DNA of 64,000 bases from Squalus acanthias (lineage: Eukaryota): the NCBI GenBank assembly GCA_030390025.1, contig CM059431.1, positions 144,524,001 to 144,588,000 on the forward strand, given 5' to 3'. The notes below the pieces were generated by a model that saw only the letters and a program-made list of their open reading frames with translations, made no database searches and was not told the origin of the DNA. Below, in pieces: positions 5,625-54,884 of this stretch. Positions within the stretch are counted from its first letter, which is position 1; every line of letters begins with the position of its first letter. The position numbers and the translations under genes are program-made.

Positions 5625-6746
5625 GTGGGGTTCACACGGCCCTTGACCGTGTCCGTTCTATCTCCCGCACTTCTGCTCTCACTCCTACCCCTCCCTCCCG
5701 GAACCACGACAGAGTTTTCCTTGTCCTCACCTTTCATCCCACCAGCCTCCACATTCAACGGATCATCCTCCTCCATTTCCGTCACCTCCAGCGTGATCCC
5801 ACCACCAAACGCATCTTCCCCTCACCTCAACTTTCAGCATTCCTAGTCCACTACTCTATCACCCCAACACCCCTTTCCTTTCGCCCGGCACCTTCCCGTG
5901 CAAGCGCAGGAGATGCAACACATGACCTTATACCTCCCCCCTTCCCACTGTCCAGGGCTCCAAACATCCCTTCCAGGTGAAACAGCGATTTACTTTTACT
6001 TCTTTCAATTTAGTATACTGTATTCGCTGCTCACGATGCGGTCTCCTCTACATTGGGGAGAGCATACGCAGATTGGGTGACCGCTTTGCGGAACACCTCC
6101 ATTCAATCCGTAAGGGGGACCCCGAGCTTCCGGTCGCTGGTCAGTTTAATTCACCGCTCCACTCCCACTCTGACCTCACCGTCCTCGGCCTCTTGCATTG
6201 TTCCACGGAAGCTCAGCGTAAGCTCCAGGAACAGCACCTCATCTATCGATTAGGCACTTTACAACCCTAAGGACTCAACATGGAGTTCAACAATTTCCGA
6301 TCATAACCTCGGCTCCTATCATATATATAAATATATTTTATCCGCACACTTTGTCTGTCTTTTTTTTTCTTCCCCACAAGGCAGCTGTCTTTCATTCTGC
6401 CAGCGCAATTTACACTTCATCTAAAACCATCCTTTGTTTCTTAACACTGTCCCATTACCATCTCCTTTTGCCTTGAATATCTGTTAATGTCTCTTAACCT
6501 CTACCGCCTTCTATCCTATCACAGATCTTTCCTTTTGTTCTTTCAGCCCCTCCCGCCTTTCCCAGCCTCTACACTTGCTTAAAAATCTGTTCCATTTCCT
6601 GCTTTTTTCCAGTTCTGACGAAAGGTCATCGACCTGAAACGTTAACTCTGTTTCTCTCTTTACAGATGCTGCCTAGCCTGCTGAGTATCTCCAGCTTTTT
6701 CTGTTTTTATTTCAGATTTCCAGCATCTGCAGTATTTTCTTTTTGT
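5625..6746 (+). mobile_element. 5'-truncated Penelope-like retroelement (RT C-terminus, GIY-YIG endonuclease, 3' UTR)
   Basis: LVYCIRCSRCGLLYIGESIRRLGDRFAEH...EQHLIYRLGTLQP in ORF 5977-6270. Confidence 0.9.
6611..6647 (+). ncRNA. Minimal hammerhead ribozyme motif
   Basis: AGTT-CTGACGA-A-AGGTC-atc-GACCT-GAAA-CG-TT-AACT. Confidence 0.8.
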
Positions 6747-8720
6747 ATTAATTTACTGCTGGTGACCCTACTCTATCATTACTGGTGGTGACTCTACTCT
6801 GACATTAATTCCGGTGACCCTACACTAACATTACTGGTGATGAATCTACTGCAACATTACTGGTGGTGACCCTACTATAATATTATTATTGGTGAACCTA
6901 CTCTAATATTAGTGGTGCTGACCCTACGCTAACATTAATTGCAGTGATCCTACCTCTACATTATTAGTGGTGATCCTACTCTAAAATTAATGGTGGTGTA
7001 CCAACACTAACGTTAAGGGTGTTGATCCTACTATAGCATTACTGTTGGCGACCTCGCTCTACCGTTTCTTATGTTGAAACTAATTTAAAACTACTCACGG
7101 TGACCCTTCTCCAACATTACTGGTGGTGATCGTGATTCAACATTACTGTTGGTGACCCTACTCTATCATTGCTGTTGGTGACCCTACTTCAACATTATTG
7201 GTGGTGAAACTACTCCAACATTAATGGTGTTAACCCCACTCTAATATTATTGGTGTTGACCCAACTCTAACATTACTGATGGTGTTTCTACTCTAACATT
7301 ACTGGTGGTCGCTCTACTCCAACATTACTTTTGGTGAACCTACTCTATCATTACCCATGGTGACCCTACTCTAACATTACTGGAGGTGACACTGCTCTAA
7401 AATACTTTTTGTGATCCTACTCTAACATTATTGGTGGTGATCCTACTGTAACATTACTGGTGGTGACTCTAATCTAACATTACCAGTGGTGACCCTACTC
7501 TAACATTACTGCTGGTGACCCTACTCTAACGTTACTGATGGTGAAACTACTCTATCCTTACTGGTTGTGACCATACTCTAACATTACTGTTGTTGACACC
7601 ACTCTAATATTATTGGCGGTGATCCTACTCTAACATTACTGGTAATGACTCTTCTTTAACGTTCCTAGTAGCGAAACTATCTAACAATACTTGTGGTGAC
7701 CCTGGTTTAACATTACTCTTACTGTCCCTACTTTAACACAACTGACTGTGACCCTACTCTACCGTTCCTAGTGGTGACCCTACTTTAACATTACTGGTGG
7801 TGACTCTATGATAACGTTGCTGATGGTGATCCTACAGTAACATATATGGTAGTGATCCTACTTTAACATTACTGGTGATGCCCCACTCTAACATTACTGG
7901 TGGATTACTTTACTCTAACATTACTGCTGGTAACTCTACTCTAACATTAGTGAAGGTGTCACTATTCGAACATTATTGGTGGTGACTCTACTCTAACCTT
8001 ACTGTTGTTTACCCTGCTCTAGCATAACTGGTGGTGACTATACTCTATCGTTACTGGTGTTGGAGCTACTCTAACATTACTGTTGGTGACACTACTCTAA
8101 CATTACTGGTGGTGACCCTACTCTAACCTTATTGGCGGTGATCCTACTCCAACATTACTGGTGGCGAGGTTTCTCTATCATTACTGGTGGTGACTCTAAT
8201 CTAACATCACTGGTGGTGGCCCAACTCTCACATTATTGGTGGTGACTCTACACTAACATTATTGTTGGTGAATCTAATCTAATATTACTGGTGTTTACCC
8301 CGTTCTATCATAACTGGTGGTGACCCTACTCTATCGTTACTGGTGTTGAAACTACTCTAACATTAATGTTGGTGACCCTGGTCAAACATTACTGGTGATG
8401 ACCCTCGTCTAGCATTAATGATGGTGACCCTACTCTAACATTACTGATGTTGTGCCTATGATCAATTTACTGTTGGTGACACTACTCTAACATTACTGGT
8501 GGTGACTCTTCTCTAACATTATTGTTGCTGACCTTCCTCTAACATTGCGAAAGCTGAATGTACAATAACATTACTCATGCTGGCCCTACTCTAACATTAC
8601 GAAAGCTGAACGTACAGTAACATTACTGATGCTGGTCCTACTCTACCATTTCGAATGCTGACTCTACTCTAACATAACTAATGGTGGCCCTACTCTAACA
8701 TTAATGGCGGAGACCCTAGT
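6747..8720. repeat. 26-bp minisatellite, main segment
   Basis: About 75 degenerate units of AACATTACTGGTGGTGACCCTACTCT. Confidence 0.95.
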
Positions 8721-8727
8721 ATAATTT

Positions 8728-9268
8728 TGTGGAAATAAACCACTCGAAGTCACGGATAGGCTGCGATACGGGAACACTTTATTACAAAACTGCTGGGGAG
8801 AATCTTCAGCGCACCGAAGTCTCTAAAATTTACGATGATCGTGGAAGTTTATTTATACATAATCAAGCTACTACCGATAATTGCTCAAACGTTAATTACC
8901 GGTTACGTAGGCTTTGACAGATATTTCTTGTTATCTCAACTGCCCCAGTCTCAAGGCCCTTACGTCTGCTTTCCTGTGATTCTTTTAACCACATTATCTG
9001 ACCTTCAGTTCCCCCTTATCTTTTGCTCATTAGCCTTGGTTTGATAGACAAAAACGTATTTTCGTCAAAACTGCTTACACCTACAGTTTTTTACATCTTA
9101 GCTTACATATGGCCGAGCTTCCCATCATGCCTTGCGATTACAATGGCTTGTTACTAACATGGATACTTACATTATTGCAGCATACATTAAAAGGTATCGA
9201 CTTACACGTGATGGAATAATCACAGGTTATCACCACATCAGTACATTGAGCAATGTTACTATCCTATC
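8728..9268 (-). mobile_element. Putative 3' LTR of a decayed LTR element
   Basis: TG/CA ends, minus-strand TATAAA (~8855) upstream of AATAAA (~8782), GAGGGG purine tract at ~9270-9277; right boundary uncertain and no partner LTR found. Confidence 0.45.
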
Positions 9269-10269
9269 AGCCCCTCAAGTCAACCACTGGCCCTCCAGGT
9301 TGCCACTTCAGCCTCTCTTGTTGGCCCCCGGGTCAGACCTTTTCTGATCCAGGTAGGACACCACTAACCCCGAATTAACTACCTCTGAGATTGTCCAGGG
9401 ATCCTACTGGACTCCCACGGGTGTCGAATTCATAAATTTCAAGCTTCTCTTACTGCTTCAGCGATGTCCTGGTGATATTGGCTATGCTTGGAACCATATA
9501 GACCAGATCTATACAACATACTGATTCATTGGTAACTTCTTCTCTGGGAGCGGTTCTGTGACTACGGACACTGGGACGTACCCTTTGTTTGACATCATCA
9601 CCATCTTCACCACACAGTACGAAGTTGCATATGCAATCAAACTCATCTCAGTCTTGCTGTCTTCTGTTGACTGAAGTTTTCTCTTCCTCTGGTTTCGCGC
9701 TGCCTTCAGTGTTCAATTGCTGCTTCTTTATATCTTTTCCCTCACAAAATATTTGGCAACTTGCAGCGCCTGGTTTATTTCACCATTCTTGTTGCTAATG
9801 ATTTTTCTGAATGAGCTTTTCTCTGAGAACTTTTACACAAACAAACTTCCCACGAATTATGACAGGTGTCTTTTGCCTTTCACATAGCCCATTATCTAGC
9901 CTGATCTGCAACTTCAGCGATAAGGGATGTTAGGTGTTGAAAAGCCTCTGTCTTACTTTGAAACTTAATTAATGTTTGTCCTTCACTGGCTTCTTGTTTG
10001 TAACATAACCGAAAATCATTTTCTACTTTAGCACTATTCTCGCAGTTAACATAATGTTGGCTTAATTTTATCATCATGCTTTACTTCTCAGCCTTGTGTC
10101 TTTTTAACTAATGTTATACATATTGTAACAGAGGTGTTATGCTTCGAACACACGTTATTATATATCGTAGCACTTTTAAGAAAAGCATTACATTTAAAAC
10201 ATTTTCAAAATAAAAACATATAAGCTCTATTCTACCTTGAAGGCGAGGTATTTATCCGACCCCTCAATT

Positions 10270-11200
10270 TTAAATTATTTTATATGGATTTGCTCTCCCA
10301 CGTTTGCTTATTTCAAAGAGGTTCTGTGCTGTGATTATGTCTAATTGTGATCTTGTCTTGTACATTAGGTGCCTTAAGTAGCATTTGCAGAGCAATAAGC
10401 ACATTAATACTATAAATTGGGTTATGTCCAGTACGTGTGAAATTATTCTAATCCAAGGGGGAATATCTATGTCCGTCCCTATATCACACCCATGTGTCAA
10501 ATCTACCATATGTGGAATGTCCTTGGCTACATTTTTGTTCCCTTGCTCCAGTGAAATGTAATGTCGTTGGGAGGCGTTCACCTGGTTCATTAATTTTGTT
10601 AAGGCTTCAGGTAGTTCACGGACCTCATATCCAAAGTTAATGACATAGTCCTCTAGATTTATACTCCATTTATCTTCTACGTGTAAGACCTGCTGATCAG
10701 GTGTGGCCATGCAAATAGGGGTTTTTCCTCCTATTACAGTGGTTTTGGTACGGGTAATGCAATAGGTTCCCTGATTAATTGAACATTTAAGATATCCGTG
10801 ATGATAATAGGTTTCTAATGTGGTAAAACACTTCCTTCCTTCTCGTATATAGGCCGTTATAGTTCTCACATCAGATGGACCTGTTACTTCCATGGTAGAG
10901 TTTAACCCGCCTTATTCCAATCAAAAACACAGGTATCTGCTGAGTGATCGTATAAATTGTATGGGCAAATGAATGCATCCTCATTTGTACTGCATCTTTG
11001 TCGGTTTGTTTCAATCCATGTCAGTTCTTCTGACTGGAACAACCATTGTGGTGCTGTGAGGAATTGACTAAAGATATTTATTTTCGCCATTCCTATATTT
11101 CCCAATTTAAACAGAGGGTTGGCTCTGGTTCGATTCATTAGAGTCAGAATGTGTATTATTAGTCCTAACTATTTTTAACTCCCTACCTTGTGACATTCGT
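10270..11200 (-). pseudogene. Envelope/fusion glycoprotein-like gene remnant, copy 2
   Basis: Cys-rich region (CSTNEDAFICP...C, GRKCFTT...CSINQ), heptad repeat, C-terminal TM helix and short tail. Confidence 0.65.
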
Positions 11201-11244
11201 GTTTAACTGAGTAGATCTTAATCAAACTGCTGATCTCACATAGT

Positions 11245-12100
11245 TCAAAGTCTTACTGCACGGGTTACATATATCAAATACACTATCATTACAAGTTGGA
11301 GAACTACCAGAGCGTGAGAAATAATACGAACCTGAGGGTGTGCTAATGTATTAAGCCCAATATCCCACCAGTGTAAATCGTCACTTATGCTGTCAATGTC
11401 AATACCTATTCTCGAGTTGTCTTGCTCCAAAACATAAAAATGCTTTAGGGAGGTGTTCAGTCGCATCACGAGCTCACTGACGACCACAGACAATAGGGGA
11501 ATGTCGTATACGAATTGTGCAGCTCATAATTAAGTGTCTCATTTACTGTCAGTTTCACTTGAGCATACGTTTTGATATTGAGTAAAACGTGTTGGTTGAT
11601 GGGACAGGTCCTGTTAGACCCGTAAAGCATGGTAGTTGCAGTAGTAGTGACACAGGAGGCACGACCAAAACCACCTCATTCTAGATTCATACTGGTTTTT
11701 CCCATGCTCTGTTATCTACAAAACACAAGTATTACAGTCATAAGGTATAATTCAGTCTTACAATCATTTCAAGCGACATTACAATATAACATTTAATCAA
11801 CAAATCATGGACTTAAAAGATTCTGCAGATATTTCTTACTCGTATCCATCTTGTGGATAATTCTTGCTAAACATGATTTCTGCTTATTCTCAATTATATC
11901 AATCATAATTCCATGTTATTCTCCGCTTCAAGTTCAATTTCATACCCTCTAACAGGTACAAGAGTTTTTAACTCTATTCTGATTGTTTGATTAATTAGAT
12001 AATTTCTCGATGGAGTGTGTGTCAATGCTTTAAGAGTTGTTTCCTGAGTCACGTTAAACATTTCATGTCTTGCTGTGTACAAGTAACTGAGCATGTCTGA
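11245..12100 (-). pseudogene. Envelope/fusion glycoprotein-like gene remnant, copy 1
   Basis: Hand translation gives GRASCVTT...CPINQ (~11600-11665); ORF 11245-11493 has a heptad and TM segment paralogous to copy 2; 5' extent uncertain. Confidence 0.6.
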
Positions 12101-15100
12101 GACCTGTTCTTCAGTGCAAATTCAACACGCATTTCCGGATGATAATTGCTTCATATGTAACAAATCACATTTGCACACTCATACCGATAACTCAATATCA
12201 TGCCACACGTGCCATCCGATACAAGCCTTTCTCGGGCTTTCAGGTACCTTATCAAAAGATTGTAATTGTCTGGAGAACTTTGCTCATCTTCCTATGCATG
12301 GTCCCAAAGTCTTGGGTAGTGGCCGGACTATCGAATTAAGGTTTCTTAAAAGTTTCATTATAGGACTCAAATGTCTCCAAGAGAAACTATCAATTCACTT
12401 TTTGTAGCTGCACTTTCTTGACTTTCACTGGCAAGTTTGGAAAATACCCCTTCAGAAGTGTAATTTTCCAGTTTCAATCTCTACCCCTCAATCACTTCCC
12501 TTTAATTACCATTAATATCTCATTCATGAGCCCTGGAGGAAATTTACTCTCCGGTACAATATTTAAGATAGAACACATAGATGAAACGTTCTCACTTGGT
12601 CCAAGTTATTAACAGTTTTTACTTATCATTATTTTAGAGGATGCTTTATTTTCCCAAACGTACCCCAATATATAGTGCCTGAGTCCATTTTGTCATTGCA
12701 AAATTATCCCAAAATCCAAACAGCAGTATTGTTCAACTGGCCGGTTTTGCCAATGCTCAACTTCATTTCTATCAATTCATCTTATCAATTCCAATTTCAG
12801 AAAAAAGTGATTCCCAGGCTAGGTGGTTTACACGGTGTTTTAACATTAGAGACAGAAATACTGAAATTAGTTTACTAGGTAACTTCCATATAACAAAGGA
12901 AAGAAGAGAATCCATTGTGACTCTGCTTAAGAGCCCAAGGGGTTAATTTATCAAATCATAATTTTCCTTCAGTCACTGTGGGGAAATATTAACTTAAAAT
13001 TAAGAAACTTAAATTTAATAAGTCCAATATCTTTAAATGTCATTAAGTTGTTGCTTGGCGAATTTAACAGCTGTAAGTGGAAAGGGTTATTTGCAGGTTT
13101 GTAAGAAGGTGGAGCGAAACATTGTCAGGCGCTCGCAATTGCGTCACTTCATGTAAATTTTTAAAAAACTTTCCCGATCGAAAAAGACAGTTGTGCTTTC
13201 ACAATTTAATAGGTTTGTTACCTTTAATAATTACAATTTAATGCAGATCAGTCTTTTATTAACAAAACACGAACAGAACAGACAAAACAAAATAGCACGT
13301 GAAAACAGTAAATTACGTCATATTTCTTACTGTCCTTTCTTCAGAAGCCTTTCCAAATGACTGTAAAAACCTTGAATACAACTGGAGAAAAAATCATTTT
13401 TTCACATTTAAACAAATCCAATTAAACTGCTTTGTAAATTTCACTACAGCAAGCGCGACTTCAAGGTGAAATATTAGACCGAAACGTAATCTTATGTTGA
13501 ACAAACTTTTTGTTTTTCTCAGTTTTTCCTCACCAGCTTAACTTAAATTGTAGTTCAAAGTTTTTTTGTTCAATTCTGGGTGTACAATCTTAACCGCACA
13601 TTCTTAAAACTTAAACGCTTTTTAAAATTAAAGCAGAGAAGTGGGTGGAGCTTTAAAGACAGACTTTCAGACAAAAGGAATACTGTAACTTTTTAAACAT
13701 TCATAGTCAAGAAACTTCCACACTTTAACACACACTTTCACACTAACTGAAACTGCAGCATTTTTTTAAGGTTCCTTTCACTCAGCAAATCTTGTGTTTT
13801 ATGTGTCTCAGCACAGACGTTAATAACTTCCATGTTGGTAAAACTTTAGGTTTCTCTCTTTTGTTTTCCTTTTTTTAAATCGGCGTCTCAGCAGCTTTCC
13901 CTGGCTTTCCAAATTACTGTTTTCTTCCTTTCTTTGCTGAGTTTTCAGGTAAGTTATCCTGTGTGGGATCGCAAATTAGGCCTGTGCAACGAAACCTATA
14001 CCCCTTAGTCTTTAAATATATATTAACCAAGGCTGTAGGGCAGTAATATTAGAAATCATGTCTAAAGGATAGTTAATTCATTTATAGAGAGATATCAATA
14101 CGTACATATTGCTTTTTAGATAGTTGCAAAGCATGATGGACCATTTGGTTCATTATTTTAACCCTTTTAAATATTACTGAAAGAAGTGTTGCTACTTGCA
14201 GCCAGATTGTCGGAGTCATAGCTTAACTTCTAGGCATTTTAGAAGTTCATTATCAGTGCTACAGAAGCAGTGTTTATATGTAGTTGGCCTTCTGAAGAGA
14301 TAAGGGAAACTGAACTGTACGGGGAGTCGGCCATTTCTCTCTTGGTCTCAAACACCTTATCTCCCTTTGGAGTGGACCTTGTTTATCATAATAAGCTTCT
14401 CTCGAGAATTAACGAAGTATTGGTTAGATACAACAATATGGGAAAAGTAAGATAAGCGTTTTACAACCTTGTTTAAGAGACAAGATGGAGTCTGGTAGAC
14501 CTCGCTCCCAGAGACTATATGAAGGCCCCATGTATAACAACTATGTGTTATGTTTAATGTCACAGAACATTTCAGGGCGGCTCCCAACATTGAGCGACTG
14601 ATCATTAACCAATAAGTGGAACAATGGTAGTGACGTTGTTTGTATTTGTGCGCCCACTTTTGTAACCTGTGGGTGTTGCCTATCGAAAGGTATATCAGTG
14701 CTTGTATGTAGTTTTTCCTTTGAGAGTTGGGTTCGAGTCTGAGGAAATCAACCTCTCTCCCTTTGTGCACAAAGCCTTCTGGCTAGTTTCTAATAAACTT
14801 TTACTTTGTCTTCAGTTCCGTCTCCGTCTGGTTTTGCTCCAAAATTCGATGTAACGGTGAGTAATTGGGATGCCGGGAGCAGGGGTGACCTCTTAGGACT
14901 TTAATTAGTCCCTGTGGACTCGAATTGGGCCCCTGTGAAAAAGTCCCAATTCTGATCTAACACCTGCAAATTAGATCTTTTGTTAGGGTAACTATCTGAC
15001 ACCTGGCTCCCTCAAGATTCTGTTTGGCGAATCCTGCCTGAACTGTATTAACACTTTGTTGCTGTATGATCGCGGTAGATGTGGCAACTTGACTTTGGAG

Positions 15101-17439
15101 AATTTTAATCTGATTCTGTTTTTCTAAAATTTGATCCTCCTGCGTGAGGATAACATCATCATCCCGCTCCGCACATTACGAAGTTGCATATGTAATCAAA
15201 CGCATTGCTTTTCCTGGCTTCCATTTCTTAGCCTTAACCTGCCTTTCAATGAATCCTCAAAAGGTACTCTCAGATAATTCGTTAGACACTCCACTAATAG
15301 TGTGTCATCACACTTCTTCTCTAACGTCGCTCTATATTCTTTCCAAAGATCCCCTCTCGGCATTTTGAGACCTATCTGTCAGGTAAACTAACTCTCCACC
15401 CGGATTCACCGTTGTCCAGACGACAGTCCAAGTGCCTGCTGCCTTATCCACAATAATACCTGGTTTCAGTTAATAGTCAACGTCCCATCTGGTCCACCTC
15501 CGCGCAGTCCCAATCCACTGTATTTATTAGTTTGTGTTCAAAGTGTCTCGTCACAAAGCTCTCCTTCTCCTGGGGGACTACAACAGGTGTGAGGGATTAA
15601 TTTGGGACCTTGAACGAAGTGAATCCAAATATTTTGCAACTGTTGTCCTAAATTCGGCGCTTTCTAAAGTAGATCGTTTCCTTTACAAATATAGCTACAT
15701 TTTTCCCATGCTCTCCTCCCACATCCCTTCAAAAAATATAACCTTTAATGAGAGGCGTTTGGCTTTATTCCGACAACACTGATACTGAAGAGCCTACTAT
15801 ATTTATGAACAGTAACAAGTGGTCACTTATATAACCCGAGTGTTCTGCCACAGATTGTTTAGCTGGAAATCTGTTTAGTTTTATATAGCAGGTCGGCCTT
15901 ACAAACAACGACCACCTCGCACTGCTCCATTGTATCGAATACATCCGCCTGTACCACGTGTTCCTGTTGGGCTATTTTAGGCTCGAGGTGCTTCACCATG
16001 TTTTTCCATTGTTACAGTTCTCTCACTGTAAACTGTGAGATAGAACATTTTCCTTACTTGCTGCAAATTTACATTTATTGTGTGGTGCTAAGATGTTGAA
16101 TTGATTTCTAATATTACTTCTATTGCTGTTGTCTTTATCAGGTGCTATCCAGCGCTATGACCTTCGGTCTCCCACACCTTCAATACAGCCAATTCCAGGT
16201 CAGCTAGAGCGACTTCGATAGCCTTTAACTAACAATTGGTGACCGAACAAAGTTGTTGCTTTTTAACAATTACTATTTGGAACAATAATAACAAATACAA
16301 TAAGACGCAGTTTTCTAGGCTTTCGTTGGCCGCAGATAACTCTAGGAATTAGACTCAGATTCAACACAAGTTTGCATCTATAGAGCAGGCAGCTTCCCTT
16401 TACATCTACCGATATTATTACCATATTAATCAAAGTATTATTTGACACAGTGTGCCTGTTTATATTGACTTGTCCTGGTGACAGTCTGTTGTAAATCTAT
16501 TCATAGTGAGTCATCAACGAGATTTTGAATGCAACGTTAAGTTAAATCTTATAACTATTCAGGATTGTTATCAAACCCCGGACTTGATTTTATCCTTGCA
16601 GCTCACAGTACTGATCAGAGATTCTGAATAATATAATTTATCATTGCTATACACACTATTCGTAACAATATGCAGATGCTCCACAAGGCTGAATATTCAG
16701 CAACATCTCAATTTTATCTCAAATATCTGACAATTACTTTTCGCAGTTATTACTTGCATTACCAAGAAATTATAGTTGCATAAATCGTTCAATATTGGTC
16801 TAATTCAGAAAAAAAATATTACACTGTAGGCATTGAGAAAAGGGGTGAGCAGCTTCATTTTAATTTCGATGATTAGCTTTCAACTTTTGGTCACCAGTCG
16901 TGATTTCTCGTTCTTAGCGAAACAGGCAAACGTCACAGTTACAATAGAGTTCTCAGTGTTTTGCATCATTCGGACATTTAACAAGAGACACGTGCCCTAT
17001 TCCACGTGGACCGGAAACAGTAGGGGGTTGCGACTGAAGGTGAGACCCCCATCTGCAGAAATCTTACCGAGGCACGAGGGCAAAATACGTCATTGGTTCT
17101 GCCTACCGGAAAATTTAATTGTCAATTTATCTGGTAAATCTAAATTGCTGGCATGCATAGAAGTCAATTATCTCTGCTTCTCAAACATGTTATTCCACCA
17201 ATACATCTTACTTGTGATTATTGAATTACAACCTTAGCGAGAAAGGAGCATATCGGAAGCTCTGAAATACAAGTAGCCAGAGGCAATACCGACATGACTC
17301 GCGTGCTATATAAACGGGATATTTTCGTGCGCCTGGTATTGTTTACAAGAACCATCCTACTGTGTTTTTGAACAGCGAACTATTCTGATCTGAAACAAGA
17401 ACGGACACTGAGCTCTAAATTTGGACAGCAACATTTTGG

Positions 17440-18232
17440 TTTGACTTAATTGTTTTCTTTAAACCAGCCTGAGGAATATCAGCAAAGTCTTCAGCTCTTC
17501 TCTGTATTTGGTCAGAGTGTATCCAGAAATGCAGGTGTTCGTCCAGGAACACAAATACATGAACATGAACCTGGTTCGAGTCGGTATATATATTGGGTTA
17601 GTGAAATCGCATTGATAATGAGCGCTGACGGTCATTCTGACAACTAAAGCTCACAGCAGCTTTCAACCACCAGAAGGTAAAATTGCCCGATAGAGTGGAG
17701 AGCGAATTGATCGATCTGTTTCGGTTCTCCCTATCTGGATCACACTCATTCTCGCCGTATTGACCCGGAGTGCCCTGCGGACTCGATTGGACGGCCAGAT
17801 ACTTAAACATTGAAATCAAAGCAGATGGCATCAAGGGAAAAATATAGATTTCACCAGGAATGTGCTGCCCAGGAATGTAATAAAAGGAATTCCACACTTG
17901 TGCTTCAATCCCGCTGCACATTGTCAATTATTTCTTCCTGTTCAAAGCATCAGAGGCTGTAACTGAACCAGAACAGGTCGGTGATCCCTGTTAGACCGCG
18001 GCTGCAGTCCTCTCCGTGCAATATGACGTTGTAAGTTTCGAGCAGCATATCGCTGCAATGCGTTCAATGGTGAAGGAGACGGTGAACCGCACAGACCTTT
18101 CCAGGGTGGCGACATTCAAGCAGAGAATGAAGCTGCAAACTGGAGTTTGGAACAGGAAGCGTAGTGGAAAGACATAACCGAAATTCCGATGAGGTTGAAG
18201 ATCATGACCAGTAGAAACGCCACCGCCTTATT
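17440..18232 (-). pseudogene. Decayed GPR139-like GPCR exon 2
   Basis: DNA blocks shared with 59080-59999 (GTGAAGGAGACGGTGAACC, TTGAAGATCATGACCAGTAGA); ENECDPDRENRNRSI..TLSGNF; frameshifted, exon 1 not found. Confidence 0.85.
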
Positions 18233-20199: not shown

Positions 20200-20550
20200 A
20201 CTATTTTTTAAAGTAGCCGGTGTTGTAAAGTAGCAATAATGGCAGCAAATTTCTGCACAGCAAGATCCCCCACACAGCAATATGATAGTTAACAGATAAT
20301 TTGTTTTAATACATTTGTTTGAGAGATAAATGTCAGCGAGGATGCTGGGGAAGAATCCACTGCTCATCTTCAAAATAGTGCCATGGGATCTTTTAACTCC
20401 TCCTGAGTGGATCAACGGACAATCGGATTAATATCACATCTGCAAGGCGGCACCTCCACCAGCCTAGATGTTTTTCTCAAGTCCCTGGAGTGGGGCTGGA
20501 ACACAACAATTCTGACTTCGAGACTGCTACCACCGAGCCACGTCTGACAC
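20200..20550 (-). mobile_element. tRNA-headed Deu-domain SINE (SacSINE1-like)
   Basis: Minus strand has head GTGTCAGACGTGGCTCGGTGGTAGC and Deu core TAAAAGATCCCATGGCACTATTTTGAAG; homologous to 31733-32080. Confidence 0.75.
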
Positions 20551-21722
20551 AGTACCTACACCTCGCATCACTGTGTAACGGTAAATATACAGAAATGACC
20601 ATTCTCACCGAGCCCCGGTTGACACTGTACCTACACCTCGCATCACTGTGTAACGGTAAATATTGAGAAATGACCATTCCCACCGAGCCCCGGCTGACAC
20701 TGTACCTACATCTCGCATCACTGTGTAACGGTAAATATAGAGAAATGAACATTCTCACCGAGCCCCGGCTGACACTATACCTACACCGAGCATCACTGTG
20801 TAACGGTAAATATAGTGAAATGACCATTCCCACCAAGCCCCGGCTGACACTGTACCGACACCGAGCATCATTGTGTAACGGTAAATGTACAGAAATGTCC
20901 ATTCTCACCGAGCCCCGGCTGACACTATACCTACACCAAGCATCACTGTGTAACGGTAAATATAGCGAAATGACCATTCACACCGAGCCCCGGCTGACAC
21001 TGTACCAATACCGGGCATCACTGTGTAACGGTAAATATACAGAAATGACCATTCCCACCGAGCCCCGGTTGACACTGTACCTACACCTCGCATCACTGTG
21101 TAACGGTAAATATAGTGAAATGAACATTCCCACCAAGCCCCGGCTGACACTGTACCTACACCTCGCATCACTGTGTAACGGTAAATATAGTGAAATGACC
21201 ATTCCCACCGAGCCCCGGCTGACACTGTACCTACACCGAGCTTCACTGTGTAACGGTAAATATAGACAAATGACCATTCCCACCGAGCCCCGGCTGACAC
21301 TGTACCTACACCTCGCATCACTGTGTAACGGTAAATATAGTGAAATGACCATTCCCACCGAGCCCCGGCTGACACTGTACCTACACCGAGCTTCACTGTG
21401 TAACGGTAAATATAGACAAATGACCATTCCCACCGAGCCCCGGCTGACACTGTACCTACACCGAGCATCACTGTGTAACGGTAAATATAGAGAAATGACA
21501 ATTCCCACCGAGCCCCGGCTGACACTGTACCTGCACCGAGCATCACTGTGTAACGGTAAATATACAGAAATGACCATTCCCACCGAGCCCCGCTGCCACT
21601 GTACCTACACCGAGCATCATTGTGTATCGGTAGATATAGAGTAATGACCATTCCCACCGAGCCAAGGCTGACACTATACCTACACCAAGCATCACTGTGT
21701 GACAATAAATATAGAGAAATTA
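20531..21722. repeat. 60-bp tandem repeat, ~20 copies
   Basis: CACCGAGCCCCGGCTGACACTGTACCTACACCTCGCATCACTGTGTAACGGTAAATATAGAGAAATGACCATTCC recurring with period 60. Confidence 0.95.
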
Positions 21723-21899
21723 CCAATTCCATCGACACGCAGCCTCCACAAGAGGACCTTAAAGTCGGCCTTCCTGGCCATCCAGATATATTTATATTTG
21801 GCCAACGTATATTTGGATAGAGAGAGTGATGGATACTAAAATAGAAGGGACAGTAAATCATTCTGAGAACCAAAGGGCGCTGTAAAGGGATATTGATAA

Positions 21900-22240
21900 G
21901 ATTCCGGAATTGGGGAAGAAGGCAGATGGAACTCAATGTCAGTAAATGTCAGCCAAAGAATTAACATTAAGAATTCGGTGCATGGGAAAAGCTGCATGAT
22001 GTGGAAGAGCAGTTGGATTGGTTTGGGGGAATATGTCTATAAGAACTTTAAAACACCACCTCAACTGGATAGAGCTTTTAAAAGATAATGCATTATTGGG
22101 AGTTATGGGAAGAGGCGTAGACTATAACATTACAGATGCAATGGTGAATCTGAGAAAAACATTAGTGAGACAACAGCTGCAGTATTATGTGCAGTTTGGT
22201 GCTGCACAATTTACGTGGGCTGCTGAGGCAATAGAGATGT
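21900..22240 (+). mobile_element. Old CR1 ORF2 fragment
   Basis: MVNLRKTLVRQQLQYYVQF resembles the CR1 LYKxLVRPxLEYCVQFW motif. Confidence 0.6.
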
Positions 22241-25663: not shown

Positions 25664-27038
25664 ATGGGGCGAACAACTATTCTGCTGATCAAAGAGATTT
25701 ACTACCCGATTCTCGCGGCCGTCGGTGTCCCTGGTGAGCCATTGTAACCTGTTTTTTGGTTAATCGGGGTTAATTGTATTCATGTACATACAGCCTGTTT
25801 TAATAAGGTATTGAGTTTTCTAGAGGTCAACATTACACTTAATCGGTTAGCCTTACTGATGTTACCAAGTTCTTTGAATCTCCAACACAAGGATTTTAGC
25901 GGATTTCTGGACCGTCTTGTTCCCCCCGTGCAGAGTGAGCGCTGCAAAAGCTCATTAAAATATGTGGATGGGTTTCCCAGGTAATGGCTTTAATACGAAT
26001 CCTGTTCTCACACTGCTCCGTGTTGATAATCACACTGAATGGAATGAAATGATCTTAACAGGTATCTACTTATATATTTCAATCAGACACTGGGACGTTA
26101 TTTCTCTCCTCTCTCTCTTTCTTACAGCGAACTTGGTCACAATTGTGATTCTCTCCCGAGGAAACTGCGGCCTTTCGAAGTGTATCACTATCTACATGGT
26201 GGCCATGGCAACAGCAGATCTGCTTGTCTTGATCTTCAATGTAATAGGATATCATATTTTCAATTATCACTTTCCACTTTCATTCCTGTACCACACTCCC
26301 GTGTGTAAGTTCATTCTCTATATGACTGCTGTCAATCTCGATTTTTCTGTTTGGTTCACCGTCTCCTTCACATTTGACCGATGTGTTGTTATCTGCTGCC
26401 AGAAGTTTAAAGCAAAGTATTGCACCGAGAGAACTGCGGCCGCGGTCATAACAGCTTTCACGGTCGTAATCTTTTTAAGGGGCATCCCCATTTTGTTTGC
26501 ATTTGAAGCTGAACAAATCGTTAACAAGGTGCAGTGGGGCTGCCGGAACAGTGTGACTTTTGTTACCTCAGCTCCAGGTGTTGCCTACATCTGGTTTCAC
26601 AGCGCCTGGGGCGTTTGGCTTCCTTTTACTTTAATTGCATTTTTAAATTATTTGACAGTCAGACGTATTTTAGTGGCCAGCAGAGCCCGCAGGGGACTCC
26701 GGGGTCAAAGGAGTGAGAATCAGAGAGATACAGAGACAGAGAACCGAAGGAAATCCATCATTTTACTGTTCACTATATCGGGCAGTTTTATATTGTTGTG
26801 GATGACAGCTGCCGTGAGTTTTGTAACTACCAGACTGACAAACACCACCTATTATCGAGGTGACCGCACAGACACTGGTTATATCGCCATTGAAACTGGA
26901 ACAATGTTGAAGTTTTTCAGTTGCTTTCAAAACTCGTGCATTTATGTAGCGACCCAGAGGAAATACAGAGAAGAGCTGAAGAATGTGGTTAAATCCCCCT
27001 GGAGACTGATTCTGAGATTAGTTAGAAAATCAGAATAG
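25664..27038 (+). CDS. Class A GPCR, GPR139/GPR142-like, 326 aa; exons 25664-25733 and 26128-27038
   Basis: Exon 1 MGRTTILLIKEIYYPILAAVGVP with phase-1 G|GTGAG donor; polypyrimidine TTACAG acceptor; in-frame join PANLVT; ADLL, FDRC, seven hydrophobic segments. Confidence 0.92.
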
Positions 27039-33773: not shown

Positions 33774-34659
33774 AATTAAATAAATCTGTTGGACTATAAC
33801 CTGGTGTTGTGCGACTTCTCATTTTTGTCCACCCCAGTCCAACGCCGGCATCTCCACATCATGATTCCTACATGACAACAGTGTCTACAGTTCTAAAGTA
33901 TTTCATTGGCTGTAAAGGGCTTTAGGATGTCTTGGATATTTAAAGGAGCTGTAAACATGTAATATTTATTTTTTATTATTGAATTCGCTTCCAAGACCCT
34001 TTCAGACAATGCATTCTGGATTATAACAGTTCGCTACGTAGAAAAAAAATCTCCTCAACTCCTCCCTGGATCATTATCTAATTGCTTTAAATACGCGGCC
34101 TCTGATTACTGACCCTCCTGCCAGTGGAAACAATCTCTCCTTATTTACACTAAACCCCTTATAATTTTGAACATCTCTGTTAAATCTCCCCTGAACATTC
34201 TCTGCTCCATGGAGAATGATCCCACTTTCTCGCCATGTCGGCAGTTTCAGATCTTTCACCCGCTGTGGGCGAGGGCCCGCCCGAGACCTCACATCCGGGT
34301 ACCTCCAGTCTTGCCTTAATCTCTTCCTTGCTCAGTTTGGCAGATTAATCTTAATTTTTTTTCGTATAATCAACAATTTAAGAAGATTATTCTTAAATTT
34401 TTTTCGTACAATCAACAATTTACGAATCACATTTTAAATATGTTAACAAATACCCCTTTTGAAAGGATCCAATCTCTTCATTTACCGATTTAATCGAATC
34501 CCTTTTCATTTCATTTGACTCATCGGTTCAAAAAGTTGAAAAAAAATATGATTGATATTTTATGAATTCATAGTGGAGCTCTCTCCGTCTATGGAATTGT
34601 TCGACACTTCCCGCTTTCCTTCTCATCTTGGCCCCGCTCTCCTGGTCCCATTTCTTTCT

Positions 34660-37600
34660 GTCGGATCCCCACACTCTGCCAGATTCCATCCCACGGGTTC
34701 CCACACTCTGCCAGATTCCATCCCACGGGTTCCCGCACTCTGCCACATCCCAGTCGCACTGGTACCCACACTCTGCCAGATCCCAGTTCCACGGGTTCCC
34801 GCATATTGCCAGAGCCCAGTCCCACGGGTTCCCGCACTCTGCGAGATCCCAGTCCCACGGGTTCCCACACTCTGCCAGATCCCAGTCCCACGGGTTCCCA
34901 CACTCTTCCAGATCCCAGTCCCAAGGGTTCCCACACTCTGCCAGATCCCAGTCCCACGGATTCCCACACTCTTCCAGATCCCAGTCCCAAGGGTTCCCAC
35001 ACTCTTCCAGATTCCAGTCCCACGGGTTCCCAAACTCTGCGAGATCTCAGTCCCACGGTTTCCCGCATTTTGCCAGAGCCCAGTCCCACGGGTTCCCAAA
35101 CTCTGCCAGATCCCAGTCCCACGTGTTCCCGCACTCTGCCAGATCCCAGTCCCACGGGTTCCCACACTCTTCCAGATCCCAGTCCCAAGTGTTCCCACAC
35201 TCTGCCAGATCCCATGTCCCACGGGTTCCCACACTCTTCCAGATCCCAGTCCCAAGGGTTCCCACACTCTGCCAGATCCCAGTCCCACGGGTTCCCACAC
35301 TCTTCCAGATTCCAGTCCCACGGGTTCCCAAACTCTGCGAGATCTCAGTCCCACGGGTTCCCGCATTTTGCCAGAGCCCAGTCCCACAGGTTCCCAAACT
35401 CTGTGAGATCCCAGTCCCACGGGTTCCCGCACTCTGCCAGATCCCAGTCGCACGGGTTCCCGCACTCTGCCAGATCCCAGTCCCACGGGTTCCCGCACTC
35501 TGCCAGCTCCCAGTCCCACGGGTTCCCACACTCTTCCTGATCCCAGTTCTACGGGTTCCCACATTCAGCCAGATCCCAGTCCCACGGGTTCCCGCAATCT
35601 GACAGATCCCAGTCCCACGGGTTCCCACACTCTGCCAGATCCCATTCCCACGGGTTCTCACACTCTGCCAGTTTCCAGTCCCAAGGTTATTCCGCACTCT
35701 GCCAGATTCCAGTCCCTCGTGTTCCCGCAATCTGCCAGATCCCAGTCCCACGGGTTCCCACAATCTGTCTGATCCCAGTCACACGGGTTCCCTCACTCTG
35801 CCAGATCCCAGTCTCACGTGTTCCCACACTCTGCCAGATCCCAGTCCCAAGGTATTCCCGCACTCTGCCACATCCCAGTCCCACGGGTTCCCAGAATCTG
35901 TCTGATCCCAGTCACACGGGTTCCCACAATCTGCCAGATCCCAGTCTCACTGGTTGCCACCCTCTGCCAGATCCCATTCCATCGGGTTCCCATACTCTGC
36001 CAGTTCCCAGTCCCACGGGTTCCCGCACTCTGGGAGATCCCAGTCCCACGGGTTCCCGCAATCTGCCAGATCCCAGTCCCACTGTTTCCCGCATCTGCCA
36101 GATCCCAGTCCCACGGGTACCCGCATTTTGCCAGTTCCCAGTCCCACGGGTTCCCGCAATCTGACAGATCCCAGTCTCACGGGTTCCCACACGCTGCCAG
36201 TTCCCAGTCCCACGGGTTCCCGCAATCTGACAGATCCCAATCTCACGGGTTCCCGCAACCTGACAGATCCCAGTCTCACGGGTTCCCGCACTCTGCCAGT
36301 TCCCAGTCCCACGGGTTCCCGCAATCTGACAGATCCCAGTCCGACGGTTTCCCGCACTCTGACAGATCCCAGTCCCTCGTGTTCCCGCAATCTGCCAGGT
36401 CCCAGTCCCTCGTGTTCCCGCACTCTGCCAGATCCCAGTCCCACGGGTTCCAACAATCTGCCAGATCCCAGTCCCAAGGTTTTCCCGCACCGTGCCAGTT
36501 TCCAATCCCACGGGTTTCCACACAATGCCAGATCTCATTCCCACGGGTTCCCGCACTCTACCAGATCCCAGTCCCACGGGTTCCCACAATCTGCCAGATC
36601 CCAGTCCCACGGGTTGCCGCAATCTGCCAGATCCCAGTGCCACGGTTTCCCGCAATCTGCTAGATCCCAGTCCCACGGGTTCCCGCACTGTACCAGATCC
36701 CAGTCCCACGGGTTCCCACAATCTGCCAGATCACAGTCCCACGGGTTCCCACACTCTGCCTGTTCCCTACCCACGGGTTCCCACACTCTGACAGATCCCA
36801 GTCACACGGGTTCCCGCACTCTGCCAGATCCCAGTCCCAAGGTTTTCCCGTACTCTGCCAGATCCCAGTCCCACGGGTTCCCAGAATCTGTCTGATCCCA
36901 GTCACACGGGTTCCCACAATCTGCCAGATCCCAGTCTCACTGGTTCCCACCCTCTGCCAGATCCCATTCCATCGGGTTCCCATACTCTGCCAGTTTCCAG
37001 TCCCACGGGTTCCCACACTCTGGGAGATCCCAGTCCCACGGGTTCCCGCACTCTGGGAGATCCCAGTCCCACGGGTTCCCGCAATCTGCCAGATCCCAGT
37101 CCCACTGTTTCCCGCACTCTGCCAGATCCCAGTCCCACGGGTACCCGCATTTTGCCAGTTCCCAGTCCCACGGGTTCCCGCAATCTGACAGATCCCAGTC
37201 TCACGGGTTCCCACACGCTGCCAGTTCCCAGTCCCACGGGTTCCCGCAATCTGACAGATCCCAATCTCACGGGTTCCCGCAACCTGACAGATCCCAGTCT
37301 CACGGGTTCCCGCACTCTGCCAGTTCCCAGTCCCACGGGTTCCCGCAATCTGACAGATCCCAGTCCGACGGTTTCCCGCACTCTGACAGATCCCAGTCCC
37401 TCGTGTTCCCGCAATCTGCCAGGTCCCAGTCCCTCGTGTTCCCGCACTCTGCCAGATCCCAGTCCCACGGGTTCCAACAATCTGCCAGATCCCAGTCCCA
37501 AGGTTTTCCCGCACCGTGCCAGTTTCCAATCCCACGGGTTTCCACACAATGCCAGATCTCATTCCCACGGGTTCCCGCACTCTACCAGATCCCAGTCCCA

Positions 37601-40600
37601 CGGGTTCCCACAATCTGCCAGATCCCAGTCCCACGGGTTGCCGCAATCTGCCAGATCCCAGTGCCACGGTTTCCCGCAATCTGCTAGATCCCAGTCCCAC
37701 GGGTTCTCGCACTGTACCAGATCCCAGTCCCACGGGTTCCCACAATCTGCCAGATCACAGTCCCACGGGTTCCCACACTCTGCCTGTTCCCTACCCACGG
37801 GTTCCCACACTCTGACAGATCCCAGTCACACGGGTTCCCGCACTCTGCCAGATCCCATTCTCACGTGTTCCCACAATCTGCCAGATCCCAGTCTCACGGG
37901 TTCCCGCACTCTGCCAGATCCCAGTCCCAAGGTTTTCCCGTACTCTGCCAGATCCCAGTCCCACGGGTTCCCGCACTCTGCCAGATCCCAGTCCCAAGTT
38001 TTTCCCACACTCTGCCAGATCCCAGTCCCACGGGTTCCCGCACTCTGCCAGACCCCATTCCATCGGGTTCCCACACTCTGGCAGATCCCAGTCCCACGGG
38101 TTCCCGCATTCTGCCAGATCCCAGTCCCAAGTGTTCCCGCATTTTGCCAGATCCCATTCCCACTGGTTCCCGCACACTGCCAGATCCCATTCCATCGGGT
38201 TCCCACACTCTGCCAGATCCCAGTCCCACGGGTTCCCACAATCTGCCAGATCCCAGTCCCACGGGTTCCCACACTCTGCCAGATGCCAGTCCCAAGGTTT
38301 CCCGCACTCTGCCAGGTCCTAGTCCCACGGGTTTCCGCACTCTTCCAGGTTCCATCCCACGGGTTGCCGCAATCTGCCAGATCCCAGTCCCACGGTTTCC
38401 CGCAATCTGCCAGATCCCAGTCCCACGGGTTCCCGCACTCTGCCAGATCCCAGTCCCACGGGTTCCCACACGCTGCCAGTTCCCAGTCTCACGGGTTCCC
38501 GCACTCTTCCAGGTTCCATCTCACGGGTTCGCACACTCTGCCAGATCCCAGTCCCACGGGTTCCCACACGCTGCCAGATCCCAGTCCCAAGGTTTTCCCG
38601 CACTCTGCCAGATTCCAGTCCCACGGGTACCCGCATTTTGCCAGATCCCAGTTCTACGGGTTCCCGCATTTTGCCAGTTCACAGTCCCACGGGTTCCCGC
38701 ACTCTGCCAGATCCCAGTCCCACGGGTTCCCACACTCTGCCAGATTCCGGTCCCACGTATTCCCACACTCTGCCAGATCCCAGTCCCACGGGTACCCGCA
38801 TTTTGCCAGTTCCCAGTCCCACGGGTTCCCGCAATCTGACAGATCCCAGTCTCACGGGTTCCCACACGCTGCCAGTCCCCAGTCTCACGGGTTCCCGCAC
38901 TCTGCCAGATTACAGTCCCACGGGTTCCCACACTCTGACAGATCTCATTCCCACGGGTTCCCGCACTCTGCCAGTTTCCAATCCTACGGGTTCCCACACT
39001 CTGCCAGATCCCAGTCTCACTTGTTCCCACACTTTGTCCGATCCCAGTCCCACGGGTTCCCGCACTCTTCCAGGTTCCATACCACGGGTTTCCGCACTCT
39101 TCCAGATTCCATCGCACGGGTTGCCGCAATCTGCCAGTTCCCAGTTTCATGGATTCCCGCGCTCTGCCAGATCCCAGTCCCAAGGTTTTCCTGTACTCTG
39201 CCAGATCCCAGTCCCACGGGTTCCAACAATCTGCCAGATCCCAGTCGAAGGTTTTCCCACACTCTGCCAGATCCCAGTCCCACGGGTATCCGAACTCTGC
39301 CAGATCCCAGTCCCAAGGTTTTCCCGCACTCTGCCAGATCCCAGTCCCACGGGTTTCCGCACTCTGCCAGTTTCCAGTCCCACGTATTCCCACACTCTGT
39401 CGGCTTCCAGTCACACTAGTTCACACACTCTGCCAGTTTCCAGTCCCACCGGTTCCCACAATCTGCCAGATCCCAGTCCCACGGGTTCCCACACTCTGTC
39501 AGATCCCAGTCCCACGTATTCCCACAATCTGCCAGATCCCAGTCCCACGGGATCCCGCACTCTACCAGATCCCAGTCCCACGGGTTTCCGAAATCTGTCA
39601 GATCCCAGTCCCACGGGATCCCGCACTCTGCCAGATCCCAGTCCCACCGGTTCCCACAATCTGCCAGTTCCCAGTCCCACGGGTACCCGCACTCTGCCAG
39701 ATCCCAGTCCCACGGGTTCCCGCATTCTGCCAGATCCCAGTCCCACGGGTTCCCGCATTTTGCCAGATCCCAGTCCCACTGGTTCCCACACTCTGCCAGA
39801 TCCCATTCCATCGGGTTCCCGTACTCTGCCAGATCCCAGTCCCACGGGTTCCCACACTCTGCCAGATCCCAGTCCCACGGGTTCCCACACTCTGCCAGAT
39901 CCCATTCCATCGGGTTCCCACACTTTGGCAGATCCCAGTCTCACGGGTTCCCGCACTCTGCCAGATCCCAGTCCCACGGGTTCCCACACTCTGCCAGATC
40001 CCAGTCCCACGGTTTCCCAGACTCTGCCAGATCCCAGTCTCACGGGTTCCCACACTCTGCCAGATCCCAGTCCCACGGGTTCCCGCACTCTGCCAAATCC
40101 CAGTCCCACGGGTTCCCGCACTCTGCCAGATTCCAGTAACACGGGTTCCCACACTCTGCCATTTTCCAGTCTCACGGGTTCCCACACTCTGCCAGATTCC
40201 AGTAACACGGGTTCCCGCACTCTGCCAGATCCCAGTCCCACGGGTTCCCACACTCTGCCAGATCCCAGTCTCACTTGTTCCCACACTTTGTCAGATCCCA
40301 GTCCCACAGGTTCCCGTACTCTTCCAGGTTCCATACCACGGGTTCCCACAATCTGCCAGATCCCAGTCTCACGGGTTCCCGCACTCTGCCAGATCCCAGT
40401 CCCAAGGTTTTCCCGTACTCTGCCAGATCCCAGTCCCACGGGTTCCCGCACTCTGCCAGATCCCAGTCCCACGGGTTCCCGCACTCTGCCAGACCCCATT
40501 CCATCGGGTTCCCACACTCTGGCAGATCCCAGTCCCACGGGTTCCCGCATTCTGCCAGATCCCAGTCCCAAGTGTTCCCGCATTTTGCCAGATCCCATTC

Positions 40601-52600: not shown

Positions 52601-53745
52601 AGTCCCACGGGTTCCCGCACTCTGCTAAATCCCAGTCCCACGGGTTCCCGCACTCTGCCAGATTCCAGTAACACGGGTTCCCACACTCTGCCATTTTCCA
52701 GTCTCACGGGTTCCCACACTCTGCCAGATTCCAGTAACACGGGTTCCCGCACTCTGCCAGATCCCAGTCCCACGGGTTCCCACACTCTGCCAGATCCCAG
52801 TCTCACTTGTTCCCACACTTTGTCAGATCCCAGTCCCACGGGTTCCCGCACTCTTCCAGGTTCCATACCACGGGTTTCCGCACTCTTCCAGATTCCATCC
52901 CACAGGTTGCCGCAATCTGCCAGTTCCCAGTTTCATGGATTCCCGCGCTCTGCCAGATCCCAGTCCCAAGGTTTTCCTGTACTCTGCCAGATCCCAGTCC
53001 CACGGGTTCCCACACTCTGCCAGATCCCAGTCCCACGGGTTCCCACACTCTGCCAGATCCCATTCCATCGGGTTCCCACACTTTGGCAGATCCCAGTCTC
53101 ACGGGTTCCCGCACTCTGCCAGATCCCAGTCCCACGGGTTCCCACACTCTGCCAGATCCCAGTCCAACGGTTTCCCAGACTCTGCCAGATCCCAGTCTCA
53201 CGGGTTCCCACACTCTGCCAGATCCCAGTCCCACGGGTTCCCGCACTCTGCCAAATCCCAGTCCCACGGGTTCCCGCACTCTGCCAGATTCCAGTAACAC
53301 GGGTTCCCACAGTCTGCCATTTACCAGTCTCACGGGTTCCCACACTCTGCCAGATTCCAGTAACACGGGTTCCCGCACTCTGCCAGATCCCAGTCCCACG
53401 GGTACCCACACTCTGCCAGATCCCAGTCCCACGGGTACCCACACTCTGCCAGTTCCCAGTCCCACGGGTTCCCACACTCTGCCAGATCCCAGTCCCACGG
53501 GTTCCCACACTCTGCCAGTTCCCAGTCCCACGGGTTCCCACACTCTGCCAGATTCCAGTCCCACAGGTTCCCACACTCTCCCAGTTTCCAGTCTTACGGG
53601 TCCCCGCACTCTGCCAGATCCCAGTCCCACGGGTTCACGCACTCTGCCAGATCCCAGTCCCACGGGTTCCCACTCTCTGCCACACCCCAGGCCCTAGGGT
53701 TCCGGCACTCTACCAGTTTCCAGTCCTAAGGGCTCCCACACTATG
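34660..53745. repeat. 33-bp satellite (~580 monomers) with ~2.4-2.6 kb higher-order repeat
   Basis: Monomer CCCAGTCCCACGGGTTCCCACACTCTGCCAGAT; marker GTCGGCTTCCAGTCACACTAG recurs at spacings 2441, 2507, 2573, 2407, 2605. Confidence 0.98.
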
Positions 53746-54884
53746 ATAGTTCTAGATATCCCCCTTCTTCTAGAATGGCCCCTCGAATATCAGAGGAATA
53801 GAGTTCGATGAAATCTATTGTTGTTGACACAAGACTTGTTGAGTTTACATCATTTGAGCTGTGTGGGCATTTCTGGTAAGCTAATCATGGAAAGTATATT
53901 TCTGCAATTTATAGGTTACACAGCTCTGTAGCAGAGATTCCAGGAATACACAAATCCAGTTTTGAAGAAATTATAGAAAATCCTGCTTTCCATCTTTAGA
54001 AAAGAGGACACCTCCAGCTGATCTAATGTTTTAATGTAACGAGGAGAATGCACAAATTACCCAAATTCTTCACGGCAGCAAGGAGTTCAATCATAAAGAT
54101 CTATAAATTCAAAATGTGAAATTAGGAGTGAGAAGGGAAGCCGGGCGGAACATTTCACCTCACTGGGTAACTGTATTCTGTATGTTATTTACTGAGTTAC
54201 CACAACGGTCATGCAGTACAAACCTATTTATCTGGCTCTGAAGTTGACAACTAGATTATCGAAAGTTTAGCACATGCCAAACATAACCTTCTCTAAACAA
54301 ACCGCAACATCCATGTGCTGCATAACACAAGCAAAGGTAAACTGATGAACCTCAATCTGAGGAGTTGAATAATCATGATATGCCACGAAAAAAAACAGAA
54401 AATTATCTTGAAAGAAGGGTAGATTATCAAAAAGTACACTTTTAAGTGGAATACTCCTGTCACTACATTTACTGCAATTTAGGAGGCAATAACAGGAACT
54501 CTATTGTTTAACGTTAGATTGTTAAGTTGCCGATTTATACTAATCATTCTCACAGTTGTTAATGGGATAGTCTGTGGTGCCTGTACCTACTGTAACAAAT
54601 CAAAAGCTGGAGACCCAGTTATATGCACTCTATTTAAGTACAAACAGAGGAATTCGGTTGTGTTTTGTTGAAGAGGTCCCTGCACAGAAACAAATACACG
54701 GAATCTCCTGTGTTGTGAATCCAAATATTTTCCCACGTCGTGGAGATCCCATTATTCGAAAGCTGAATTTTATTATCCTGAAAGATATATGTTGCGAAGA
54801 AGATAAATCCTTCATTCACTCCTTAAACCCCTTACTGAGGAATTAGACTGAAGAGGAGGGGCAGACGGGCATTGATACCCTGCT

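Follow-up and report, generated by a model that had tools for sequence, protein, structure and literature searches.

Does a stretch of shark DNA that carries two envelope-like pieces side by side descend from a retrovirus with two env genes? The question is raised by a locus in a 64,000 nt stretch of the Squalus acanthias genome (GCA_030390025.1, contig CM059431.1, positions 144,524,001 to 144,588,000; hereafter the window), where a first-pass annotation made from the letters alone had described an endogenous viral element with two tandem, divergent envelope-like genes at 10270..12100. The reading that we consider very probably correct is a different one: the locus is a broken, pol-less LTR element in which the tail of one env (env1) is joined to the 3′ 40% of the env, and to the LTR, of a single-env retrovirus family, and which moved as a passenger. 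The parts of the window copy are as follows.

14966..15481, minus strand: leader remnant and N-terminal gag stub (ATG at 15363), related to the donor family, family A
13962..14962, no strand assigned: insertion of about 1 kb, absent from both C7 duplicates of the locus
11680..13961, minus strand: AT-rich core of the pol-less module, with no Env or Pol match and no frame clearly constrained in a frame scan
11245..11679, minus strand: env1, an Env tail (heptad, WWDIG, TM) with its stop codon TGA at 11247-11245
11245..11246, minus strand: recombination junction, where the stop codon of env1 and a mid-gene stretch of family-A env have a 2-bp GA in common
10270..11246, minus strand: env2, the last 325 codons of family-A env, 74-81% identical in DNA to single-env copies
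9652..10232, minus strand: partial family-A 3′ LTR, its start eroded, matching both LTRs of L052
9311..9646, minus strand: short gag-like scrap, which repeats 15205-15169, and further sequence
8728..9310, minus strand: a second LTR-like repeat (TG...CA) of unrelated type, with dispersed copies at 86-91%

At its 5′ end the window copy has neither LTR nor target site duplication (TSD). The leader remnant is 66-75% identical in DNA to family-A leaders and the gag stub 34-51% identical to the family-A Gag N-terminus (tblastn); upstream of the leader lies locally duplicated sequence, with matches to 15490-16500 falling mostly in the same C7 region and on unplaced contigs. The C7 duplicates, L018 and L037, run straight from 14963 to 13961. 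The second LTR-like repeat recurs in L097 and L100, in L097 with a part directly 5′ of the core, and is likely to be a later LTR swap. Elsewhere the window holds two intronless GPCR-like ORFs on the plus strand (25959-27038 and 59080-60069), apparently paralogous and in a segmentally duplicated region, a GC-rich satellite of about 19 kb (34500-53750) and two smaller tandem arrays (6760-8720 and 20477-21948).

The motifs quoted for the two pieces were all recovered on the minus strand within 10270..12100, and the proposed paralogy is real. Aligned through their natural open frames (11523-11251 for the env1 tail and 10911-10273 for the env2 tail), env1 and env2 share 27 of 81 amino acids, with a score of 128 against 28 ± 4.7 (maximum 47) in 1000 shuffles. 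No obvious DNA identity had been seen between them, and this holds as well: the same alignment is identical at 129 of 243 nucleotides (53%), and blastn of 8001-17500 against itself gave no match of env1 to env2. Each piece had been described as ending in a Cys-rich region, a heptad and a TM helix. By the Env profile the heptad/WWDIG/TM region does end both, but the Cys-rich region of env1 is additionally cut by a 45-bp deletion at 11603/11602. The CX6CC mark of gamma-type TM proteins, reported as not seen, is absent from all three family Env frames checked.

The description as two genes, however, does not stand. On a 557-position Env profile, env2 spans 247-551 and env1 just 385-545. The stretch 12100-11680, which the annotated range had included, is without Env homology, and 12700-11680, tried as an Env N-terminus, gave no match. 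The likeness of GRASCVTT in env1 to GRKCFTT in env2 is in part an accident. Within env1 of the window about 250 bp have been deleted and the ends joined at a TGTGT microhomology (11656/11655); GRAS stands on the upstream side of this deletion, and GRASCVTT is therefore a chimeric reading; less-deleted env1 copies have GKGTYCVTT at this position. The frame of GRAS also differs from that of env1's own ATG at 11679, which opens about eight signal-peptide-like codons, and the Env tail of about 135 codons beyond the deletion is out of frame with this start. Both pieces are truncated, and they are the broken tail ends of two different single-env retrovirus families.

The family of env2 is abundant in the same genome, where a search with env2 gave at least 151 matches from the best 150 of 8372 candidates. 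Twenty loci picked by env similarity (L011-L030) were examined with their flanking stretches. Nineteen hold a single env, with one TM-region match each to the Env profile, and the odd one out, L018, and the window locus are segmental duplicates of each other. Their layout is that of typical ERVs: CCHC Gag, protease, RT, tether, RNase H and integrase (IN), then one env. Four of the 20 (L019, L020, L029 and L030) represent a more distant family B, in two subgroups, with one env near 6600-8500 on the element strand and an Env 34-44% identical in amino acids to that of family A. Full-length family-A env has about 830 codons, and the LTR, about 820-860 bp when complete, begins about 45 bp past the env stop. 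Family-A Gag matches zf-CCHC at E 2.3e-7, its N-terminus looking coiled-coil-like by eye, and Env carries a basic cleavage site (KSKRRR/GLI in L012, RQKR in L014). The provirus L028 has a tether (PF17919/PF17917) and RNase H (PF00075) by Pfam, domains common to all retroviruses; its frames are interrupted by stops. Because its LTR stretches (1-460 and 8836-9296) are 99.6% identical, family A was active comparatively recently.

Around env2, the window DNA matches family A solely from 11246 downward. The piece is thus the final 325 codons of the gene and is without signal peptide, cleavage site, fusion peptide and first heptad; it has stops at 11177 and 11171, a frameshift at 10914/10913 and an in-frame TAA just upstream.

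With an amino-acid identity of 35-48% between its Env tail and those of families A and B, env1 represents a third lineage of env. Its own family is large and dispersed, with at least 45 DNA matches from the best 40 of 2224 candidates; in a protein search all 150 scored candidates, the best 150 of 7963, matched. Across 78 anchored env1 loci, taken from ranked match lists rather than at random and with an upstream reach of 5.5-8 kb, Env homology never extends convincingly past the last ~160 codons, and none has RT, RNase H and IN leading up to env1, where just scraps of gag and pol of several types occur. L053 has a distant RT-RH-IN farther upstream, and the IN of L054 lies outside its 5′ LTR. 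An intact env1 parent was sought at 16 targeted loci (L091, L092 and L102-L115, L109 being unanchored), none of which has pol or an Env core; L099 and L101, like L109, have no anchor in the targeted set. In less-deleted env1 copies the start of the gene survives as a hydrophobic ATG frame, at most 82 codons long, and the tail follows it in another frame.

The module core (11680-13961) is 83-88% identical in DNA to dispersed copies. Modules with env1 and no env2 lie between differing LTR types and PBS motifs (L042, L063, L066, L073, L075 and L082) or beside gag and pol scraps of other families (L043, L044, L057, L065 and L082). Part of the core (window 12895-13225) matches L019 at 9563-9883 with 79% identity, downstream of a family-B env. 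In L018 the env1 TM region is interrupted by 1.4 kb of inserted sequence (5963-7402) whose inverted repeats are 99% identical, probably a Penelope-like element.

The point at which the two lineages meet was located by comparing 12 single-env copies with the window and with the own-type copy L042. The junction is precise: env2 begins within the stop codon of env1, and GA is the only sequence that they share. Most env1 copies are instead followed by their own 200-bp 3′ segment and then by various LTRs (39 of 40 protein-search loci, 9 of the 20 nearest in DNA and 13 of 16 anchored targeted ones), with env2 as the neighbour in the remaining 1/40, 11/20 and 3/16. The identical junction is present at 15 loci and in the window, and six loci on four chromosomes, three of them C7 duplicates, have a long env2 across it. 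Four chimeras have paired TG..CA/TA LTRs and 4-bp TSDs (GTTG, GTAG, GAGC and GCTC on C4, C11, C7 and C20), with LTR pairs 95.5, 96.4, 89.0 and 94.5% identical. Because these are four copies on four chromosomes, each with paired LTRs and a target duplication, the chimera moved as a unit. A TGGCGCCC-type PBS, which may be a tRNA Lys1,2 primer site, lies behind the 5′ LTR in L098, L045 and L054. The dispersed copies thus have the paired LTRs, PBS and TSDs of a non-autonomous LTR element (L098, L056, L052 and L054 are examples for LTRs and TSDs), and the 78 anchored loci are without gag-pol-env coding capacity. The three closer LTR pairs would be some 80-125 million years old, an order of magnitude obtained with a rate of 2.2e-10 that is marked as uncertain in the available text of its source (PMC4422223).

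These integrations bear directly on the proposal that two nested or adjacent decayed proviruses were brought together by insertion and later chromosomal deletion, of which the first-pass annotation had named the nested form as its fallback. The pieces do come from different families, the window copy has no 5′ LTR and three of the copies are C7 segmental duplicates, all as such a history would leave them. Between the pieces, however, there is no LTR or TSD, and the same exact join recurs at 15 loci and in the window, among them independent, TSD-flanked integrations of the whole unit. As the shared junction has distinct flanks and TSDs, locus-by-locus nesting is refuted, and we regard this explanation as unlikely.

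The same junction, leading into a long env2 at six loci on four chromosomes, could be taken as the mark of a retrovirus with two functional, divergent tandem env genes, as could the real paralogy of env1 and env2 and the LTRs that bound the tandem copies. Yet the N-terminal fusion machinery is missing from both pieces in every tandem copy examined, and tandem copies are without pol whereas their pol-bearing relatives are single-env. env2 has also proved dispensable, having been deleted repeatedly: it is down to about 95 bp plus 250 bp in L038, L045, L048, L054 and L056, and loses 600 bp in L049-L052. In some sister copies env2 has been swapped for that of another A subfamily. The env2 of L098, 74% identical to that of the window and of A1 type, is unbroken (no stops and no frameshifts over 325 codons) and may have been acquired anew from subfamily A1 at a later time. 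The annotation had itself let its two-env element depend on what intact relatives carry; since the gag-pol-bearing relatives found in the genome have one env, the claim is refuted on its own terms, and a two-env virus is the least probable of the explanations that we weighed.

Is either piece nevertheless kept as a protein? For env2, dN/dS is 0.65 among independent tandem copies (3 pairs), 0.25 for the same region among A1 single-env copies (55 pairs) and 0.19 between A1 and A2. Large env1 subfamilies give 0.65 and 0.76. Off-frame values from the same kind of data range from about 0.35 to 1.7, so that 0.65-0.76 is compatible with neutrality. In the least-deleted env1 subfamily the tail has a dN/dS of 0.30, which goes against a purely neutral history, and its frames are near stop-free; env1 pieces were therefore under some constraint earlier. 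Such a piece, whether the env1 tail or the headless env2, could have served as a short membrane-anchored heptad protein that inhibits fusion in a dominant-negative manner. In old env1 copies the ATG start is still hydrophobic, staying open for 82 codons in L091 and 81 in L106, and the tail has hardly any stops and a dN/dS of 0.3-0.45; the unbroken env2 of L098 points the same way. But in L091, L092 and L104 the tail does not share the frame of the start, 11 of 14 old env1 copies either lose the start frame within 36 codons or have no match to it, and the large env1 subfamilies are near-neutral. We consider this role very improbable.

Under the passenger reading, two retroviral genomes would have been packaged together, and template switching would have joined the env1 stop to family-A env; the junction fits a founding DNA-level deletion followed by retrotransposition equally well. 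Because the chimera shares its LTR, gag stub and 3′ end with family A, we infer that it was mobilised in trans, likely by that family, with Gag and Pol supplied by the helper. Neither piece would then have a protein function, and env2 may have been kept only because it connects the module with the LTR and the 3′ signals.

The layout of the pieces had been likened to that of paramyxovirus and pneumovirus F proteins, and for the Env of the parent family A this homology is supported by comparison of structure models. The natural 633-aa open frame of L012 was modelled with a 46-row alignment (pLDDT 68, pTM 0.50), a first model from 14 rows (pLDDT 34) having been discarded. With this model, Foldseek ranked the F proteins of hPIV3 (E 7.6e-11), RSV, NDV and henipavirus first and also returned foamy Env (E 2.7e-7), and the viral-model matches include baculovirus F, lispiviral glycoproteins and the walleye epsilonretrovirus Env. 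In VIA, each of the eight best rows is either F or foamy Env (Z 7.1-10.2). TM-scores of the matches are modest (0.2-0.36 by query). The model aligns with NDV F (3maw) over 372 residues (Z 10.2, rmsd 18.7) and with foamy Env (8rm0) over 274 (Z 8.9, rmsd 5.8), at an identity to these proteins of just 10-14% (for foamy virus Env and paramyxovirus and pneumovirus F, see PMC11468914). By sequence, no Pfam fusion family, PF00523 included, was found on env2 or the family Env, a PDB search with Env gave nothing meaningful and a word-based homologue search none, and a Baculo_F match, weak at E 0.0011, occurred in one (P0036) of 34 homologues scanned. Family-A Env is thus predicted to be an F-type class I fusogen, and env1 and env2 would be F-type through their homology to it. 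Counted in this way, F-type env in this genome comes from three lineages or more, namely A, B and that of env1's parent.

A search with the Env profile gave 57 homologues, and the named ones among 20 looked up are from sharks, a skate and frogs. These nearest Env homologues, like those of IN, are consistent with the chondrichthyan host that had been guessed. Two shark database proteins, P0036 (an fbxo15 isoform) and P0028 (cadherin-related 5-like), hold family Env tails, which are either annotation artefacts or exonised ERV pieces. Long open Env frames are present in Chiloscyllium, Pelodytes, Mantella, Bombina and Xenopus (P0019-P0057), and a 16-member Mantella cluster of them suggests a young amphibian family. 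P0093 ties a Xenopus RT to the start of the family-A type of Env.

Where, then, does the donor belong? The database proteins nearest to family-A RT are from Xenopus tropicalis (58%), other frogs and coelacanth, its nearest IN homologue is from Callorhinchus (52%), and the best match of RT among solved structures is foamy Pol (132 bits, against 88 for Ty3 and 79 for MLV). In an RT tree of 64 rows (a subset of 120 matches plus two family rows, with one SFV row and no loki row), family A and other LPQG elements split from gypsy-type RTs at 100/100; family A did not group with the lone SFV row, on a backbone of weak support. A scan of IMG/VR for RT references found none. True foamy viruses have a Gag without a Cys-His box and accessory genes 3′ of env, and mammalian ones use a tRNA-Lys primer site. 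With its CCHC Gag and an LTR so soon after the env stop, family A was rejected as a true foamy virus. Wang, Chen and Cui reportedly described a cartilaginous fish endogenous foamy virus in 2023, which may already cover family A.

The annotation had looked instead to lokiretroviruses. In the available text on these (PMC7947760), likenesses to family A are the F-like Env, tether plus RNase H and a basic cleavage site; by eye, the Env core of Loki-Lch and its RT stretches WRLTIDYR, DIANGFW and DQYKLAF also resemble family A, whose RT carries both loki-like and retrovirus-like stretches. Its IN matches bear the automatic names NYNRIN-like and GIN1-like, an IN nearest to CGIN1 being a lokiretrovirus criterion, as are an RT clade sister to other retroviruses and, for some members, an smc-like gene. 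Against this, the RTs of Loki-Lch and Loki-Cne have CPFG, again by eye, where family A has LPQG, and the same source reports loki in none of six chondrichthyan genomes. Judged by this RT motif, with a tree that holds no loki references, family A is probably not lokiretroviral. Because its RT has LPQG and is nearest to Xenopus, other frog and coelacanth elements, a shark/frog foamy-like (FLERV) lineage is suggested, to which family A may belong. CmiFLERV and XtrFLERV form a shark and Xenopus clade in the available text of PMC5512871, and the frog and coelacanth RTs, the Callorhinchus IN and the foamy Pol structure all recall them; they are known there from pol only, whereas family A has gag-pol-env. 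It is conceivable, and we propose it tentatively, that the donor is a complete, recently active basal retrovirus of sharks, frogs and coelacanth, probably of the FLERVs, with CCHC Gag, a mixed RT and an F-type Env.

The tandem is ordinary in kind, being a recombinant passenger element, and is at the same time a clean record of a dead module passing between helper retroviruses and LTR types. More valuable is the parent family, whose gag-pol-env anatomy and F-type Env would represent a deep-branching chondrichthyan and amphibian retrovirus lineage. This Env bears on the origin of retroviral Env, for which four scenarios are set out in the available text of PMC7947760; if the donor is indeed a FLERV, its Env, together with those of loki, foamy and walleye epsilonretroviruses, would imply that retroviral Env was ancestrally an F-type fusogen. 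Within the literature covered, which lies largely outside subscription journals, we found no two-env ERV, no truncated-env non-autonomous recombinant and no shark F-type Env.

The closest known systems, as presented in the available text of PMC6466679, are mouse ETn/MusD and VL30, which are likewise LTR-bounded, without coding capacity and with traces of retroviral homology, and which occur in many copies beside coding-competent relatives in the same genome. By this analogy the chimera is probably an ETn/VL30-like passenger. It differs from them in that its core sits between several unrelated LTR and gag types, in that it bears env tails of two lineages and in that its trans-mobilisation is deduced from sequence. 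Template switching in env among ERVs (PMC10536682, available text) similarly yields an env region that is chimeric from two retroviral genomes; the shark element is set apart from such mosaics by a non-homologous 2-bp join that leaves two dead tails in tandem and no working env.
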